64,000 nucleotides of DNA from Pseudorhodobacter sp. (GCA_047975325.1 JBKEDF010000075.1:14782-78781); one strand, 5' to 3'. Shown: positions 29,000-36,196, counted from the stretch's first letter. The notes: generated from the sequence alone by a model not told the origin. Numbers and translations are program-made.

Positions 29000-29183
29000 G
29001 ATGGCAGGAACGTTACGCGATCCGCCATCCTCCGACCTGATGAAAGATGGTTACTTTTGTCACGTTGACCCCCGATTGACATATCTGACTAAATTGATAA
29101 GTTTTGAACAGCCACGCATCCCCGGGTGCGAAGCCGCCTGAATTCCTGCCCGAAGAGTGGCAAACAGAAGGACCAGCATTCGC

Positions 29184-30455
29184 ATGAAACCCCTCCGGCT
29201 GGCCACGAGCATGGCCGCAATCACCCTTGGGTTCACCCTTTCCGCCCATGCCGAAACAGACCGCACCCAGGTACTTGAAACCTATGCCGATATCGCGGCC
29301 GCTAAATATGCCGACAGCCTTGATGGTGCGCGGAACCTGCAAGGCGCGATTACCGCATTCATCGCCGAACCCACCAAGGAAGCCCTGATTGCCGCACGCG
29401 AGGCCTGGATTGCCGCGCGCGTGCCCTATCAACAATCCGAAGTCTATCGTTTCGGCAATGCCATCGTGGATGACTGGGAAGGCAAGGTAAATGCCTGGCC
29501 GCTGGATGAAGGATTGATCGATTATGTCGATGCCTCCTATGGCGGGCCGACCGATGCAAATGCGCTGGCAGCGCTGAATGTGATCGCCAATCCGACAATC
29601 AACATTGCCGGGCAGGAAATCGATGCCGCCAAGATCACCCCGGCACTGATTGGCGAGACGCTGAATGAGGCCGACGGTATCGAAACCAATGTCGCGCGTG
29701 GCTATCATGCCATCGAATTCCTGCTTTGGGGGCAGGATCTGAACGGCACCGGCCCAGGTGCCGGGGATCGCCCCCATACCGATTACGTTCAAGGTAATGG
29801 CTGCACCGGCGGCAATTGCGACCGGCGCGCGGCGTATCTTTCGGCGGCAACCGACCTGCTGATCGCGGATCTTGAGGAAATGGCCGCAAGCTGGGCCGAA
29901 GGTGGCGCCGCCCGTGCGGAGGTCCTGGCCGATGATGGCACGGGGCTTGTGGCAATGCTGACGGGGATGGGCAGCCTGTCCTATGGTGAACAGGCAGGGG
30001 AACGCATGCGGCTTGGCCTGATGCTCAACGACCCGGAGGAAGAACATGACTGCTTTTCCGACAACACCCATAACAGCCATTACTATGACGGGCTTGGCAT
30101 TCAGAATGTCTATCTTGCACGTTATACCCGCCCCGATGGCACGGTAATCGAAGGCCCATCCCTTTCCGATCTTGTCACTGCGGCAGATCCGGCGCTGGAT
30201 CAGGAAATGAAGGCCAAGCTTGATGTGACAATGGCCGCGCTCGGGGCAATCAAGACAGCAGCCGAGGAAGGTTTCACCTATGACATGATGCTGGAACGCG
30301 GCAATGAAAAGGGCGAGGCCCTGGTCATGGGCGGGGTCGATGCGCTGATCGATCAGACCCGGACGATAGAACGGATCGTCACGGCACTTGACCTTGACCA
30401 GATTGCCTTCGAAGGCTCCGACAGCCTCGATAACCCTTCTGCCGTCTTTCAGTGA
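29184..30455 (+). CDS. imelysin-family protein (iron-regulated protein A / peptidase M75-like)
   Basis: The ATG at 29184 gives the signal peptide MKPLRLATSMAAITLGFTLSAHA. Imelysin-type sequence is present, including HAIEFLLWGQD. First gene of the canonical imelysin/DUF1111/imelysin/DUF1513 arrangement. Confidence 0.8.
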   Translation: MKPLRLATSMAAITLGFTLSAHAETDRTQVLETYADIAAAKYADSLDGARNLQGAITAFIAEPTKEALIAAREAWIAARVPYQQSEVYRFGNAIVDDWEGKVNAWPLDEGLIDYVDASYGGPTDANALAALNVIANPTINIAGQEIDAAKITPALIGETLNEADGIETNVARGYHAIEFLLWGQDLNGTGPGAGDRPHTDYVQGNGCTGGNCDRRAAYLSAATDLLIADLEEMAASWAEGGAARAEVLADDGTGLVAMLTGMGSLSYGEQAGERMRLGLMLNDPEEEHDCFSDNTHNSHYYDGLGIQNVYLARYTRPDGTVIEGPSLSDLVTAADPALDQEMKAKLDVTMAALGAIKTAAEEGFTYDMMLERGNEKGEALVMGGVDALIDQTRTIERIVTALDLDQIAFEGSDSLDNPSAVFQ

Positions 30456-30582
30456 ACCACAATCACGCGGGGCGCGCGCGCTCCGCGTTCCCTGCGGCAA
30501 AAGGGGGCAGGCCAAATGGCTGGTTCTTTTCCCTTCAATGGCTTAGGCCGCAGCCAGAACATCGATACTGGACCTTTGCGTC

Positions 30583-32130
30583 ATGGGCTCCACCTTCGTC
30601 TTTTCGACTTCGCGCCTGATCCTTTCCGGCCTCCTTTCCTGCAGCCTTTTTCCATCAACACTATCGGCCGAAGGGCTGGGCGATCCGCTGCCGAATATCA
30701 TCCCCCGAACCGCGGCCGAGGCCGCACGCATCGCTACCGTCACGGCATTGCCCGAGGATTTCAGCGCCGCCCAGAAATATGAGGAAAACCCCGGCGGGGC
30801 GGCCACCGTCAGGGCGCGGCGCAATGCCGATGCCTTTTCCCAGCCTTCGGGCAACATGGATTTCGCGCGGGAACTGGATTTCAAGGTTGGCAACGGGCTG
30901 TTCCGCCGGATCTGGGTAACAGCACCCGCCTCAACCCAGGCATCTGACGGGCTGGGGCCATTCTATAACGCCCGGGGATGCCAGAATTGCCATATCAAGG
31001 ACGGGCGCGGCCATCCGCCGGAAAACCCCGAAGATACGGCTGTTTCGCTTTTTCTGCGGGTTTCGGTTCCCGATGAAACCCCCGCAGATGCCGCGCAGAT
31101 CGCAGATTACATCGCCACCGTGCCCGATCCGGTTTACGGGGGGCAGTTGCAGGATTTTGCCACCGCCGGCCACGATGCCGAATACCGTCTTGCGGTAAGC
31201 TGGGAAGAAATTCCCGTTACATTGTCGGATGGCGAAATGGCCCATCTGCGCAAACCTGACTGGCGGGCGGAGGATCTGGGCTATGGCCCGCTTGATCCAC
31301 GGGCCATGTTATCCCCCCGCGTCGCGCCGCAGATGATCGGGCTGGGGCTCCTGGAGGCAATACCCGCCAGGGATATCCTGGCATTCGCCGACCCCGGGGA
31401 TGCCGATGGCGACGGAATTTCCGGGCGCCCCAATATCGTGCCATCGGTGGAATTCGGCAAACCGATGCTGGGCCGTTTCGGATTGAAGGCCGGATCGCCG
31501 TCGATCCGCGAACAATCCGCTGCGGCTTTTTCCGGCGATATCGGAATTTCCACGCCGCTTTTCCCCGATCCATGGGGCGAATGTACCAAGGCGCAAACCG
31601 CTTGCCGCAACAGCATCCATGGTGATGATGCCGCACGCGGTGGCCTTGAGGTGGATGCCGAAGGGTTGGATTTGGTGACCTTCTACAGCCGCAATCTGGC
31701 CGTTCCCGCCCGGCGCGATGTGAATGACCTACAGGTCCTGCGTGGCAAACGGATCTTTCATGAGGCGGGCTGCGCAACCTGCCATCGCCCCAGTTTCGTG
31801 ACCCATCGGCTTGAAGATCAGCCGGAGCAAAGCTTTCAGCTGATCTGGCCCTATACCGATCTTCTGCTTCATGACATGGGGGATGGCCTGGCCGATAACC
31901 GGCCGGAAGCCCGCGCAACGGGCCGTGAATGGCGCACGCCGCCCCTTTGGGGGATTGGCATGACCCGGCAGGTCAGCGGATATTCAAGCTTTCTGCATGA
32001 CGGGCGGGCCCGCAGCCTGCTGGAGGCGATCCTGTGGCATGGTGGTGAGGCACAGAATGCACGCGATCATATCGTCACCGTTCCGGCCGAAGACCGCGCC
32101 GCCCTGATCCGTTTTCTGGGGAGCCTCTGA
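30583..32130 (+). CDS. di-haem cytochrome c-type oxidoreductase (DUF1111 'thiol oxidoreductase' family)
   Basis: Two CXXCH haem-binding motifs (CQNCH, CATCH), a signal peptide and the conserved C-terminal part WRTPPLWGIG...FLHDGRA. Confidence 0.85.
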   Translation: MGSTFVFSTSRLILSGLLSCSLFPSTLSAEGLGDPLPNIIPRTAAEAARIATVTALPEDFSAAQKYEENPGGAATVRARRNADAFSQPSGNMDFARELDFKVGNGLFRRIWVTAPASTQASDGLGPFYNARGCQNCHIKDGRGHPPENPEDTAVSLFLRVSVPDETPADAAQIADYIATVPDPVYGGQLQDFATAGHDAEYRLAVSWEEIPVTLSDGEMAHLRKPDWRAEDLGYGPLDPRAMLSPRVAPQMIGLGLLEAIPARDILAFADPGDADGDGISGRPNIVPSVEFGKPMLGRFGLKAGSPSIREQSAAAFSGDIGISTPLFPDPWGECTKAQTACRNSIHGDDAARGGLEVDAEGLDLVTFYSRNLAVPARRDVNDLQVLRGKRIFHEAGCATCHRPSFVTHRLEDQPEQSFQLIWPYTDLLLHDMGDGLADNRPEARATGREWRTPPLWGIGMTRQVSGYSSFLHDGRARSLLEAILWHGGEAQNARDHIVTVPAEDRAALIRFLGSL

Positions 32131-33120
32131 ATGCGCCTCACCCTTTGCCTGTCTGCGCTGCTGATCCTGACCGCCCCCCTGGCGCGGGCTGATGTCGCCA
32201 TGGCACTGCGGAACCATATCCTGCCCGGCTTTTCCGGTTTTGCCGCACAAACCGCGGGCCTTTCGGAAGCGGCGGCGCTTGATTGTCGCCCGGCCGCGTT
32301 GATCCCGGCTTATCATGCGGCTTTCGATGCCTGGATGACGGTGGCGGATCTGCGGATCGGGCCATCCGAAACCGGTGCGCTATCCGTCGCCTTCTGGCCC
32401 GATGATAAGGGGTTCACCGCCCGCACGCTCAGGCGGATGATTGCCGAGGCCGACCCCGTTATCGAGGATACGGAAGGCTTTACCGAGGTTTCAATCGCGG
32501 CACGGGGGCTTTTCGCACTGGAAATGCTGCTCTTTGATCCGGAATTTTCCGGTTACGATCAAAACAGCTATTCCTGCGCGCTTGCCCGGGCCATTGTCAT
32601 TGATCTTGCCGCACAGGCGCAGGCATTGGACCGCGCCTGGGCCGGGGAATTTGCCGACGTCCTGACAAGCGCCGGGGCGGCGGAAAACAGCACCTATCTT
32701 GTCCCCGAGGAAGCCTTCCGGGCGCTTTACACACAGATGATGTTCTCGCTTGAACTCAGTGCCGATCTCAGGCTTGGCCGCCCGATGGGAACGCCGGAAC
32801 GCCCCCGCCCCAGAATGGCGGAGGCCTGGCGATCAGACCGCAGCCTGCGCAATGTGACCCTGGCTGTGGATGCAGTTGAAAACCTGGCATTGATGCTGTC
32901 GGGCGAAGCCCTGCCCGGCACCCGATCGACGGCAAGCGCGGTTCATGAGGCCGCGGACAGGGTGACGGATCCGGGTTTCGGTAATATCGAAGATCCTACG
33001 GCCCGGTTCCACCTGGAAATCCTGCAAGGCGCTATCCGCAAGATGCATGATGCGATCCAGGATGAAATTGGCACGCCAAACGGGATCGTGGCAGGTTTCA
33101 ACGCCCGGGACGGAGACTAG
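32131..33120 (+). CDS. imelysin-family protein (second copy)
   Basis: Signal peptide MRLTLCLSALLILTAPLARA and an imelysin-like helical sequence. The start abuts the upstream stop. Confidence 0.7.
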   Translation: MRLTLCLSALLILTAPLARADVAMALRNHILPGFSGFAAQTAGLSEAAALDCRPAALIPAYHAAFDAWMTVADLRIGPSETGALSVAFWPDDKGFTARTLRRMIAEADPVIEDTEGFTEVSIAARGLFALEMLLFDPEFSGYDQNSYSCALARAIVIDLAAQAQALDRAWAGEFADVLTSAGAAENSTYLVPEEAFRALYTQMMFSLELSADLRLGRPMGTPERPRPRMAEAWRSDRSLRNVTLAVDAVENLALMLSGEALPGTRSTASAVHEAADRVTDPGFGNIEDPTARFHLEILQGAIRKMHDAIQDEIGTPNGIVAGFNARDGD

Positions 33121-33123
33121 GTC

Positions 33124-34200
33124 ATGACCACAAGACGCCGTTTTCTGGCAAGCCTTCTGGCGGCGGGGACAGCCCCGCATCTGGGCTGGGCGGCAGCAGG
33201 CAGCCCCACATATCTTGCGGCGGCCCGGGAACCCGATGGCAGTTTTGCCTTGTTCGGGCTTTCTGAGGCGGGGGAGGAAACCTTCCGCATTCCCCTGCCT
33301 GCACGGGGTCATGCCGGGGCAGGCCACCCCCGGCGGGCCGAGGCCGTGGCCTTCGCGCGCCGCCCCGGTACCTTCGCGCTGGTTTTCGATTGCGCAAGGG
33401 GGGAAATACGCCACCGCCTGACACCCCCCGAGGGACGGCAGTTCAACGGCCATGGTGTCTATCTGCAATCGGGCCGCCTGCTGGCAACCTCGGAACAGAA
33501 ATCGGATGATAGCACGGGCCTCATCGGATTCTGGGATGCCGAACAGGACTATCGCCGGGTTGGCGAGGCCCCCAGCCATGGTATCGGCCCACATGATCTG
33601 CGGTTGATGCCCGATGGGAAAACGCTGGTCATCGCCAATGGCGGCATCGCAACCGACCCCACGGATCGCCGCAAGCTGAATATCGATACGATGCGCCCGA
33701 ATCTTGCCTATCTGTCGACCGAAGGCACATTGCTGGAAATCCGGGAACTGGCCCCGGATCTTGCACAAAACTCCATCCGCCATCTGGCGCTGCGCAGTGA
33801 CGGGCTGGTGGGGTTCGCGATGCAATGGGAAGGGGAACCCGGGGCGGCCACGCCGCTTCTGGGTCTGCACCGGCAGGGGAACGCGCCGATCCTTGCCCCT
33901 GCCCCGCTGGCAGAGGAATTGGCCATGAAAGGCTATGCAGGCAGCATCGCCTTCAACGGGGACGGCACCGAGATTGCCCTGACTTCGCCGCGCGGCGGAC
34001 GGATGCACCGTTTCAGTGCCGAAGGGACATTCCTTGGGGCAATAAAACGATCCGATATCTGCGGGCTCGCCAGCCATCAGGCGGGACTTATCGCAAGCGA
34101 TGGGCTGGGCGGCCTGATTCGCGTTTCACGCGAAACCGCCACCCCACTTGCACGAATGGACCGCGCCTGGGACAATCACATCGTTCATCTGGCGGGATAA
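33124..34200 (+). CDS. DUF1513 protein with Tat signal (beta-propeller-like periplasmic protein)
   Basis: Twin-arginine leader MTTRRRFLASLLAAG. Its position as the fourth gene of the imelysin cluster is typical of DUF1513. Confidence 0.7.
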   Translation: MTTRRRFLASLLAAGTAPHLGWAAAGSPTYLAAAREPDGSFALFGLSEAGEETFRIPLPARGHAGAGHPRRAEAVAFARRPGTFALVFDCARGEIRHRLTPPEGRQFNGHGVYLQSGRLLATSEQKSDDSTGLIGFWDAEQDYRRVGEAPSHGIGPHDLRLMPDGKTLVIANGGIATDPTDRRKLNIDTMRPNLAYLSTEGTLLEIRELAPDLAQNSIRHLALRSDGLVGFAMQWEGEPGAATPLLGLHRQGNAPILAPAPLAEELAMKGYAGSIAFNGDGTEIALTSPRGGRMHRFSAEGTFLGAIKRSDICGLASHQAGLIASDGLGGLIRVSRETATPLARMDRAWDNHIVHLAG

Positions 34201-34306
34201 GACGCTTCATGGTTTTGCCGTAAACCACAATCCGGCACCTACCCTAGACGAACGGATATCCCGAATTCCGAAAATGTGATAGTTTCCCGGATATTGGAGG
34301 ACTATC

Positions 34307-36196
34307 ATGGCTGCCAGAAAATCACCCGGGGACGCTGAACTCCGCAAGACCCTGCGCCGATATATACGTGCGCAAGGGGCCGACTATCTGCGTGATCCGA
34401 ATATCACCTCAATCGGCGTCGGCCGCAAAAACGGCACTGGCGAAATCGGGCTGGTGTTTACTGTCGGGCAGAAGGCGGAACCTTCGGTCATCGAATCCCT
34501 TGGCAGTGAAATGCTTCCACGGCAGATTGAGATCGAAGGCTTCACGGTTGTTACCGATGTCATCGAGCGCAGCTATGAACCTTCCTTCAAACTGCTTGAG
34601 GCCGAGGCCCCCAACCCCCTGAAATCCCGTCTTGACCCGGTCATGCCCGGCGTAAGCGTAAGCCATGTCGACGGAACGGCCGGCACGCTTGGGATGATCG
34701 TTTTCGATACCGAAACAGGCGCGCCATGCATCCTTTCGAACTGGCATGTTCTGCACGGCAATACCGGAAAAATCGGCGACCCCATCGTGCAGCCGGGACC
34801 GCATGACGACAATAACATCGCAGATAACTTCTGTGGCACATTGCTGCGCAGCCATCTGGGGGCGGCCGGGGATTGTGCCCTCGCACGCCTTCAGGGCCGC
34901 GAATTCATCCGGGAAATCTATAACCTGAATGTCGCCCCCACCCGCATGGCCGAGGTGGAACTGGACGATCCCGTCGTCAAGACCGGACGCACCACCGAAA
35001 CGACATATGGGGTGGTGCGGCGAACCGATGTCATGGCCAGGATCCATTACGGAAACCCGACGGGTGAGCATGAAATCGGCGGTTTTGAAATCGGCCCGGA
35101 CCCTGACCGCCCGGCACCCAACAACGAAATCAGCATGGGGGGAGATTCCGGATCCGCCTGGATGATCGCGGAGGGGGACAAGGCGACGGATATTTTCGCA
35201 GGGCTTCATTTTGCAGGCGAAGGACGGGGAAACCCGGATGAACACGCCCTGGCCTGTTATCCCCGTTCGATTCGGAAGAAACTGAATTTCGACCTGACCC
35301 CGCCCGATATCGTGGTAATCGGCGATGACGGACCCGAAGCCTTCGGCGCAAGGGCGGGGTTTGACGGCACTTTTCTGGGCATGGCCGCGCCAATGCCGGA
35401 AATGTCATTGTCGATCAAGCGCGACGCGGTGAATTTCGGCAAGGCCCAGACAATCCCCTATACGCATTTCTCCGTTTGCCTGAGCGCGAAACACAAACTG
35501 GCCCGTTTCGTCGCCTGGACTATCGATGGCACAAGAAAGGTTCAGCTTGGTCGCCATGGCTTTCGCGTAGATCCCAGGATCGATGAAAGCCTGCAGCATG
35601 ACAACATGCTCTATCGTGACAACAAACTTGACCGGGGGCATATCGCACGGCGGGCGGATCTGGCCTGGGGGCCGGTCCCCGAGGCCCGCCAGGCAAACAG
35701 GGATTCCTTCTACTACACCAATATCGCACCCCAGCATGAACGGTATAACCAGTCCCGCCGGGGGGGATTATGGGGCAGGCTGGAAAACCTTGTCCTTGAG
35801 GAAGCCGCCACTCGTGATATCCGGGTTTCCGTGATTGCCGGACCGATCTTCCGACCGGACGATCCGGAATATCGCGGTGCAAAGATCCCCCGTGATTATT
35901 GGAAACTGGTCGCCTATATCGGTGATGACGGGGGGCTGGCAGCCGCCTGTTTCCTGTTGTCGCAAAGCGACCTTCTGAGCGACATAGAGGCCATCGATTT
36001 TGATCCTTTCCGGCTCTATCAGATTTCGGTTGCGGAACTGGGCGAACGAACCGCATTGGGTTTCGAGGCCTATGAAGCGGCGGATATCACCCGGCGTGCC
36101 GAACGGCTTAGCCGGTCAAGCATGGAAAATCTGGGGGGAATATCCATCGCGCAGCCAATCCGGGAAATCGCAACCGCGCAGGATATCGCCATGTGA
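34307..36196 (+). CDS. fusion protein: N-terminal trypsin/chymotrypsin-fold serine protease + C-terminal DNA/RNA non-specific endonuclease (EndoG/NucA, beta-beta-alpha-Me)
   Basis: GGAGG at 34296-34300 precedes the ATG. Protease triad context: SNWH(147)VL, GD(189)CALARL, GGDS(281)GSAW. Nuclease motifs: YTHFSV, DRGH(445)IARR, YYTN(472)IAPQ, NQSRRGGLWGRLEN. No signal peptide or TM helix. Monocistronic and convergent with the downstream gene. Confidence 0.85.
   Translation: MAARKSPGDAELRKTLRRYIRAQGADYLRDPNITSIGVGRKNGTGEIGLVFTVGQKAEPSVIESLGSEMLPRQIEIEGFTVVTDVIERSYEPSFKLLEAEAPNPLKSRLDPVMPGVSVSHVDGTAGTLGMIVFDTETGAPCILSNWHVLHGNTGKIGDPIVQPGPHDDNNIADNFCGTLLRSHLGAAGDCALARLQGREFIREIYNLNVAPTRMAEVELDDPVVKTGRTTETTYGVVRRTDVMARIHYGNPTGEHEIGGFEIGPDPDRPAPNNEISMGGDSGSAWMIAEGDKATDIFAGLHFAGEGRGNPDEHALACYPRSIRKKLNFDLTPPDIVVIGDDGPEAFGARAGFDGTFLGMAAPMPEMSLSIKRDAVNFGKAQTIPYTHFSVCLSAKHKLARFVAWTIDGTRKVQLGRHGFRVDPRIDESLQHDNMLYRDNKLDRGHIARRADLAWGPVPEARQANRDSFYYTNIAPQHERYNQSRRGGLWGRLENLVLEEAATRDIRVSVIAGPIFRPDDPEYRGAKIPRDYWKLVAYIGDDGGLAAACFLLSQSDLLSDIEAIDFDPFRLYQISVAELGERTALGFEAYEAADITRRAERLSRSSMENLGGISIAQPIREIATAQDIAM

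Follow-up and report, generated by a model that had tools for sequence, protein, structure and literature searches.

The window analysed here, a 64,000-nucleotide stretch of Pseudorhodobacter sp. DNA (GCA_047975325.1 JBKEDF010000075.1:14782-78781), carries on its plus strand at positions 34307..36196 a single coding sequence that joins a serine protease to a DNA/RNA non-specific nuclease of the EndoG type. Open reading frame (ORF) listing and translation gave a protein of 629 amino acids (aa) followed by a stop codon, with an ATG start located 3′ of a GGAGG Shine-Dalgarno-like element (34296..34300, plus strand) at a spacing of 6 nt, and an SD-like motif was found at the same place in 57 of 82 homologous loci. 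The gene is separated by 106 nt from a same-strand DUF1513 gene on its 5′ side and by 54 nt from a convergent PrpD-like gene on its 3′ side, which places it between an imelysin/DHOR/imelysin/DUF1513 group and a PrpD/DctMQP group. An initial sequence-only reading of the window had reported this ORF, its ribosome binding site, both gap lengths, the imelysin and TRAP/PrpD flanks and the motifs SNWH147VL, GD189CAL, GGDS281GS, DRGH445 and TN472IAPQ, all of which were confirmed together with their residue numbers. Its description of the gene as monocistronic is unproven, as simple scans of the 106 nt between DUF1513 and the fusion gene found neither a terminator-like nor a promoter-like site, and scanning the flanks for promoters and terminators gave no useful signal. 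A 100% identical protein occurs in a Pseudorhodobacter sp. metagenome-assembled genome (MAG), where it is annotated only as 'DNA/RNA non-specific endonuclease'.

Comparison with related genomes showed that the imelysin-DHOR-imelysin-DUF1513 block (window 29157-34200) is kept in order in Pseudotabrizicola and Paracoccus fistulariae and that the gene following DUF1513 differs in each genome, with AAA_27 and Metallophos genes in one, a major facilitator superfamily gene in the other and the fusion in the window; the fusion gene therefore lies at a break in synteny. Hydropathy analysis agreed with the earlier claim that the protein has no signal peptide, lipobox or transmembrane (TM) segment, the maximum Kyte-Doolittle value for any 19-mer being 1.37. 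An ORF search likewise found that neither intergenic gap has room for an inhibitor or immunity gene, and no small ORF was shared across ~85 homologous loci, in line with the original claim that no adjacent inhibitor is encoded.

The N-terminal half of the protein was divided into a short basic tail (aa 1-28; 34307..34390, plus strand as for all features of the gene) with a long helix at H7-27 in the AlphaFold2 secondary structure, an alpha/beta domain (aa 29-110; 34391..34636), a chymotrypsin-fold serine protease domain of the S1, alpha-lytic/NAL1 type (aa 111-333; 34637..35305) and a linker (aa 334-348; 35306..35350). Lysine- and arginine-rich N-termini are common across the homologues and none resembles a signal peptide. 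The catalytic codons of the protease, read directly, are H147 (34745-34747), D189 (34871-34873) and S281 (35147-35149), and this His-Asp-Ser triad is invariant in alignments of the fusion proteins and of stand-alone members, and at least nearly so in a third alignment. No match to this half was obtained in Pfam (E≤1 with the full protein and E≤10 with aa 1-354), in NCBIfam or in PADLOC, so its identity was established through structure prediction and a family profile. A single-chain AlphaFold2 model built from an alignment of 36 homologues had a predicted local distance difference test (pLDDT) score of ~90 for residues 10-333 and was all-beta over residues 117-317, while the linker was predicted to be disordered (pLDDT <50 at residues 335-350) and varied in both length and sequence across the same alignment. 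The chymotrypsin fold and intact triad proposed in the sequence-only reading were thus upheld by the model, by Foldseek and by residue conservation, albeit with no curated trypsin profile recognizing the domain.

Foldseek comparison of this model with the PDB placed rice NARROW LEAF 1 (NAL1) first (E 6e-17, ~350-395 aligned columns), followed by a second group consisting of alpha-lytic protease and the Lysobacter L1/L5 lytic endopeptidases (E ~1e-11, TM-score ~0.78 to the target). In agreement with this order, a profile of 34 bacterial stand-alone members searched against PDB sequences recovered nine NAL1 entries (E 1e-13 to 3e-12) together with weak matches to alpha-lytic-type proteases. The strongest stretch of the profile alignment covered native NAL1 residues 116-236, which include the ATP-binding domain (ABD) and the catalytic His, and a second stretch lay around the Ser. 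The first ~110 residues, previously thought to match no domain, are by this alignment the counterpart of the NAL1 ABD, and the modelled alpha/beta domain (pLDDT ~90) is accordingly described here as ABD-like. NAL1 binds ATP-Mg through R120, R122, K123, K139, D166 and V167 (PMC12012508); K41, K56 and D84-V85 of the fusion protein are conserved and align with the contacts R120, K139 and D166-V167, whereas the basic loop residues R122 and K123 fall in a four-residue deletion in the fusion subfamily. On the basis of the profile and the predicted structure, residues 1-333 are assigned to one NAL1-type module composed of ABD and S1 protease. By analogy with NAL1, the fusion protein may bind ATP, and since ATP is an intracellular ligand, homology to the ABD argues for residence in the cytoplasm.

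The nuclease module (aa 349-595; 35351..36091) consists of a conserved pre-segment, R349-x-G351-[FY]-D..FLG, and a beta-beta-alpha-Me core that matched Pfam Endonuclease_NS (PF01223) over aa 378-587 (E 2.1e-39, 135.9 bits against a cutoff of 23, model positions 14-217 of 223). Residues D442-R443-G444-H445, N472, N481 and E493 are invariant among 36 homologues of 55-82% identity, with the catalytic codons of H445 at 35639-35641 and of N472 at 35720-35722. The closest solved structures by sequence were Anabaena NucA (2o3b/1zm8) and EndoG (aa 397-588, E 3e-6 to 2e-4), and the catalytic residues align with the NucA motifs RGH, TNMMPQ and LED. Assignment as an EndoG-type nuclease, also made from the sequence at the outset, is therefore well founded on both the Pfam match and the invariant catalytic residues. 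The protein ends in a C-terminal tail (aa 596-629; 36092..36193; pLDDT ~82) that closes with the conserved motif R-E-I-x-S-x-x-D-I, in which E620 and its neighbours are conserved and a beta-strand is predicted at 618-621. Both the pre-segment and the tail are likewise present in a Paracoccus plasmid nuclease that stands alone, without a protease, and in a Pseudomonas aeruginosa Trypsin_2 fusion, indicating that they are part of the nuclease module and not control elements specific to the protease. A docking role of the tail with the protease was considered and dropped, as the same tail motif is present in the stand-alone nuclease.

Both halves of the fusion were found to be exchangeable. An exhaustive search with residues 1-355 returned 4070 relatives, many of which are stand-alone proteins of ~330 aa and many of which carry other C-terminal domains, including among those sampled Nal1_C, phospholipase A2 (PLA2), Amidase_2, Peptidase_M74, GH19, LysM, PG_binding_1, a second trypsin, S8 peptidase, Metallophos and hydrophobic or TM-like tails. 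None of the 150 best representatives of these 4070 matches had an N-terminal signal sequence, and Pfam analysis of the sampled fusions found no PAAR, Rhs, LXG or MIX-type domains. Such swapping of C-terminal domains resembles that of conflict-system effectors and was counted in favour of a role in biological conflict. Among the distant members, three proteins without signal peptides (P0262, P0214 and P0221) carry endolysin-like cassettes composed of PG_binding_1 with Amidase_2 and Peptidase_M74, of PG_binding_1 with GH19 and M74, and of Amidase_2 with LysM. Downstream of a PLA2 fusion (L091 338-3401) come an SH3-CHAP gene and two small ORFs.

The nuclease module, for its part, is found with other proteases and also without one. 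A P. aeruginosa 642-aa Trypsin_2-Endonuclease_NS protein (NZ_CP133752.1, L098 7140-9068), encoded between ilvA and a LysR gene, is 34% identical to the window protein over aa 276-594 (E 3e-43). The two proteins both begin with a basic N-terminus that lacks a signal peptide and continue with a trypsin-fold protease, the R-x-G-F-D..FLG pre-segment, the Endonuclease_NS core and an R-x-I-E-I tail; that of P. aeruginosa differs in having a Pfam Trypsin_2 protease, no ABD and DKGH in place of DRGH. Judging from its neighbours and length, with no accession match, this protein is apparently PA1327, a 'probable protease', of which the substitution R245P was the sole mutation in one phage-PaStL1 escape mutant (PMC12627681). 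On plasmid p_3 of Mesorhizobium huakuii (L095 7766-10011), a 449-aa Trypsin_2 gene overlaps a 304-aa Endonuclease_NS gene by 19 nt, and around this pair lie IS5 and ISAs1 transposases, a helix-turn-helix gene and a gene for a 1662-aa DEAD/DEAH helicase. The stand-alone nuclease of Paracoccus marcusii pCP157_03 (440 aa; L096 6560-7882) shares 48% identity with aa 333-629 of the window protein, begins with ~150 aa of unrelated sequence, and adjoins a hemolysin III gene downstream of PhoB, CHAD, CYTH and NUDIX genes. The repeated and independent coupling of the same nuclease sub-module to trypsin-fold proteases argues that the pairing is functional.

Full-length fusion proteins form a tightly conserved family of ~610-660 aa, with 1529 matches among the scored candidates. 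Relatives were detected in up to 513 of 185,579 species genomes (one genome per species), and the best 80 of these, all near full length and of 46-78% identity, came from Alpha- and Gammaproteobacteria, Acidobacteriota, Chloroflexota, Actinomycetota and Bacteroidota; with a cyanobacterium and a Nitrosarchaeum MAG contributed by a further search, ~seven phyla are represented. Copies from Proteobacteria retain 46-53% identity to those of Actinomycetota, Acidobacteriota, Chloroflexota and Bacteroidota. This combination of sparse presence and ~50% cross-phylum identity points to horizontal spread, and the patchy distribution is consistent with horizontal gene transfer. Five full-length copies are plasmid-borne. 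Phage collections contained essentially no full-length relatives, and a phage-borne lysis gene was rejected as an explanation on this ground. Structural matches to the protease module were found for two BFVD entries, A0A7S9XDX3 (449 aa, Virus NIOZ-UU157; E 4e-20) and A0A0N9MU75 (318 aa; E 1e-19). The gene is strictly single-copy, as no second copy of either domain occurred within ±10 kb in ~94 loci.

Neighbouring genes were compared at the ~85 loci by ORF calling under two gene-calling schemes and all-against-all BLASTP. No conserved partner gene or shared small ORF was found, although such a comparison could overlook immunity genes that are very short or evolve fast, and clustering yielded only lineage-local synteny, generic ABC and SDR paralogues and an association with subtilases. 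Upstream regions of 82 loci contained no conserved motif, LexA box or Pho-type repeat, and nothing beyond GC-rich k-mers. A few loci were rich in genes related to conflict. The Rhizobium laguerreae locus encodes AbiE, a UvrD helicase, two patatins and an AAA_21-DUF4435 protein matching PARIS AriAB (E 8e-100), and a Rhodococcus locus encodes a caspase, a STAND-like ATPase, a Tle1-like lipase, a trypsin and an HNH nuclease. On a Streptomyces canus linear plasmid (L101 4310-19866), a full-length homologue lies beside a 1051-aa patatin-like gene and IS5, with a long operon of hypothetical proteins on its other side that ends in baseplate J/gp47 and LamG genes; this homologue could be cargo of a contractile-injection-system-like cluster, of which it is a single example.

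The only recurrent neighbour was an S8 subtilase of ~420-500 aa, often followed by an ORF of ~75-82 aa, which was located within a few kb of homologues from unrelated phyla, independently in at least five lineages (the Arthrobacter group, Tateyamaria, Thalassococcus, Rhizobium, Dehalococcoidia and perhaps Nocardiopsis). These modules of subtilase and small ORF were mapped at L062 5939-7536, L064, L086 12945-14575, L020 13939-15503, L063 7741-9486 and L001 12041-13649. The subtilases match the gasdermin-associated 'subtilase' model of PADLOC (E 1e-16 to 7e-38), and that of Tateyamaria is 50% identical to that of Arthrobacter; the ~75-82-aa ORF had no detectable homologue of known structure. Other frequent neighbours were also degradative and included Amidase_3, Peptidase_S41, GDSL lipase and M10 peptidase with PG_binding.

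Known defence families were sought in a PADLOC scan of 142 proteins encoded within two genes of the fusion at 37 non-redundant proteobacterial loci, with 129 distal proteins as a control. Specific matches near the fusion were limited to AriAB, one bacterial gasdermin (bGSDM; E 3e-66) and two subtilases, and the distal control gave only AbiEi, from the same Rhizobium island. Most matches among the neighbours were to generic ATPases. Of two candidates for the neighbour behind the bGSDM match, one of 383 aa at L020 had no PDB sequence match and one at L086 proved to be a TetR regulator.

Taken together, we tentatively favour, at somewhat less than even confidence, the interpretation that this gene encodes a cytoplasmic NAL1-type protease with a latent, linker-tethered nuclease that is released by a trigger and kills the cell or its invader. 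Such a protein would be a self-contained two-enzyme 'executioner' acting in the cytoplasm during abortive infection or programmed cell death. By analogy with NAL1, the N-terminal module may assemble into a self-compartmentalizing oligomer, possibly a hexameric cage, to which the flexible linker of ~15 residues would tether a sugar-non-specific nuclease of the EndoG/NucA type. At rest, the nuclease would be kept latent through its tethering to the protease assembly. Upon a trigger, the protease would cut the linker, a candidate site of proteolytic release, or else cleave an inhibitory element or the protein to which it belongs; the freed nuclease would then degrade both cellular and invader DNA and RNA. 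Candidate triggers are altered occupancy of the ABD by nucleotide, entry of a phage protein into the protease cage, and the action of a partner protease, for instance one of the subtilases often encoded nearby. A narrower version of this interpretation, which we consider unlikely, is a sensor-less one-polypeptide death device built on a bacterial ancestor of NAL1, whose cage would itself read the nucleotide or energy state or capture an invader protein, cut its own linker and free the nuclease. The same cage would be reused with interchangeable warheads, in this case phospholipase, membrane tails, peptidoglycan hydrolases or subtilase.

Several results weigh against the tethered, trigger-released nuclease. 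No cleavage site, inhibitory element or latency mechanism was identified that would bear out the zymogen-type control proposed in the sequence-only reading, and no dedicated sensor domain is evident in the fusion protein, and the protease activity of NAL1 is itself unchanged by ATP (PMC12012508). The AlphaFold2 model of the nuclease catalytic core (aa 384-483; 35456-35755) has a pLDDT of 40-55 in comparison to ~90 for the protease half, which could be due to a shallow alignment or to inter-domain ambiguity. Composition of the gene is native-like (GC 0.58 and GC3 0.65; the GC of the window is 0.60), with no foreign signature. With respect to context, most neighbourhoods are composed of ordinary metabolic genes, as in Sodalis, Nitratireductor, Dyadobacter, Tsukamurella and the window, and the P. 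aeruginosa fusion is surrounded by housekeeping genes. The fusion protein matched none of the families of PADLOC-DB v2.0.0 (E≤1), and clear defence genes lay within two genes of the fusion at ~3 of 37 loci, as opposed to one in the distal control, so that enrichment in defence islands is weak. Variable positions, the synteny break and some conflict-rich loci agree with a defence context, which is not supported by island enrichment or database matches. The proposal of a defence effector fared similarly: it gains from intact catalytic sites, lack of export signals and of an immunity gene, patchy distribution and swappable domains, and loses from the blank PADLOC result, the weak islands and the peptidoglycan-hydrolase relatives. 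These relatives lead to further objections, as Amidase_2, M74, GH19, LysM and PG_binding partners of distant members target extracytoplasmic peptidoglycan, some homologues have Amidase_3 or CHAP genes after them, and the alpha-lytic enzymes that Foldseek recovered are bacteriolytic and secreted.

The last three observations can alternatively be interpreted as signs of a released antibacterial or bacteriolytic enzyme, in which a peptidase that is itself lytic, or toxin-releasing as in polymorphic toxins, would carry a swappable warhead against competitors or extracellular DNA after leaving the cell by lysis, vesicles, a contractile injection system or an unrecognized route. We regard this as a rather less probable explanation that nonetheless survives best among the alternatives. 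The domain repertoire (Amidase_2, Peptidase_M74, GH19, LysM, PG_binding_1, PLA2 and Endonuclease_NS) mirrors that of secreted toxins and lysins, Amidase_3 lies directly downstream of the fusion in three Roseobacter-group loci, RTX-type proteins recur upstream in 4-5 loci, and the PLA2 fusion with its SH3-CHAP hydrolase, the Streptomyces plasmid copy near patatin and a tail-like cluster and the Foldseek similarity to alpha-lytic and Lysobacter L1/L5 proteases all point in the same direction. However, none of the 150 representatives carried a Sec or Tat signal or a trafficking domain, the phyla concerned share no secretion system, and type VI secretion system, type VII secretion system or contact-dependent inhibition genes were absent from ~15 annotated contexts. 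A nuclease toxin delivered to kin would also need a conserved immunity gene, which the ~85 loci did not reveal; neither secretion signals nor toxin-delivery loci with immunity genes, the findings that would have spoken for export, were thus seen. The ABD homology further points to an intracellular protein, and the family is nearly absent from phage collections.

A physiological nuclease-protease unrelated to conflict, retained as an accessory trait for scavenging of nutrients or phosphate, degradation under stress or developmental autolysis, appears quite improbable. The metabolic and transport genes that make up most neighbourhoods, including that of the window, are in keeping with such a role, as are the native-like composition, the location of the P. 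aeruginosa analogue between ilvA and a LysR gene, and the plasmid setting of the Paracoccus stand-alone nuclease near PhoB and CHAD/CYTH/NUDIX genes of the polyphosphate type. A routine function is nevertheless difficult to reconcile with a gene found in at most ~0.3% of species at ~50% cross-phylum identity, with effector swapping on both halves, with recurrent subtilase, gasdermin-type, patatin and caspase neighbours, with the lack of a Pho box, LexA box or other upstream motif and with a broad cytoplasmic nuclease that has no inhibitor. Finally, that the two enzymes are independent, ungated effectors under purely transcriptional or translational control is very doubtful, for although neither a cleavage site nor an inhibitory element was identified, the pre-segment and tail occur in a nuclease without a protease, and the protease of the peptidoglycan-hydrolase fusions is plausibly one more lytic activity, the pairing of the same nuclease with two unrelated trypsin-like families and the overlapping gene pair argue for a functional dependency, the gene is not accompanied by any conserved promoter or operator motif, and an ungated non-specific nuclease in the cytoplasm should be lethal.

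If gating of the nuclease by the protease is true, this family would constitute a widespread set of single-protein suicide or defence effectors in up to ~500 species and ~seven phyla that current defence catalogues do not detect, with a far greater number of sister fusions beside them. The module in control would correspond, in prokaryotes, to NAL1, the product of a rice yield gene, whose cage has had no known bacterial context. The gene would also offer a simple system, consisting of one gene and two point mutants, for understanding how a cytoplasmic non-specific nuclease stays harmless, and a direct test of the 'NucA-trypsin' prediction of 2020 described below. If the protein is instead a released lytic enzyme, an unrecognized and signal-independent export route would exist across many phyla.

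With respect to systems already described, NAL1 (PDB 7Y77, 8PMM and 8HAS) resembles residues 1-333 in placing a small alpha/beta domain of the ABD type ahead of an S1 protease that has a His-Asp-Ser triad, and neither protein has a signal peptide. NAL1 differs in being a nucleo-cytoplasmic regulator of plants, with FZP and TOPLESS-type proteins as the substrates it degrades, and in having an extra N-terminal domain, a Nal1_C tail and no nuclease, and the Pfam NAL1_N model did not score on the window protein itself. The hexameric cage of two stacked trimers and the binding of ATP were demonstrated for NAL1 only (PMC12012508). A literature search found no paper linking bacterial homologues of NAL1 to nucleases or defence. 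Alpha-lytic protease and the Lysobacter L1/L5 enzymes (S1E) are structurally alike in the protease core; they contain disulfides and are secreted as pre-pro-enzymes in which a large pro-region serves folding, whereas the window protein lacks a pre-sequence and its N-terminal domain aligns instead with the ABD of NAL1. NucA, Serratia nuclease and EndoG share with the nuclease half the DRGH His, the Mg-binding Asn and the Glu, but are exported, imported into another compartment or paired with the inhibitor NuiA, whereas the window protein has no targeting signal and no NuiA-like neighbour and carries an N-terminal protease.

Two systems are closer in their logic, and both were counted in favour of the gated nuclease. 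In the trypsin-MBL module associated with the defence systems Hachiman, Avs2 and Argonaute, it was demonstrated by experiment that an autoinhibited DNase is activated by a trypsin-like protease that is itself restrained by ATP (bioRxiv 10.1101/2025.09.03.673762). The likeness to the window protein is one of logic only, with no sequence relationship, as the protease and the MBL-fold nuclease are separate proteins and a dedicated sensor (the HamAB helicase or Avs2) triggers cleavage, whereas the window protein is fused, uses a beta-beta-alpha-Me Endonuclease_NS domain and has no sensor partner. The initial opinion that the architecture could not be placed was incorrect, since Kaur, Burroughs, Iyer and Aravind (eLife 2020; PMC7159879) had described, as System 3 of their predicted conflict systems, trypsin-like peptidases coupled to NucA, either fused or in operons, and had proposed a proteolytic cascade that deploys the nuclease; theirs was a computational study of 45 organisms, mostly alphaproteobacteria. 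The literature therefore already contained, as a prediction, the idea of a nuclease effector gated by a protease and, more narrowly, that of a trypsin-NucA fusion. Both that system and the family described here combine a trypsin-like peptidase with NucA, sometimes in one polypeptide, and both are associated with subtilisin S8. The system of Kaur and co-workers differs, by its description, in its multi-copy operons, often TM-fused trypsins, EAD1 adaptors and STAND or Death-like partners. In the annotated contexts of the present family, the Rhodococcus STAND-like ATPase was the only such partner, from an analysis that included no search aimed at EAD domains, and the lack of a second domain copy within ±10 kb argues against the multi-copy operon form. 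The family described here instead consists of single-copy genes with no conserved partner that encode a NAL1-type protease with an ABD in up to 513 species genomes. What our analysis adds to the earlier prediction is accordingly the assignment of residues 1-333 to a bacterial NAL1-type ABD-protease module, a strictly solitary gene, the breadth of the family, the swapping of both of its halves and the recurrent association with subtilases.

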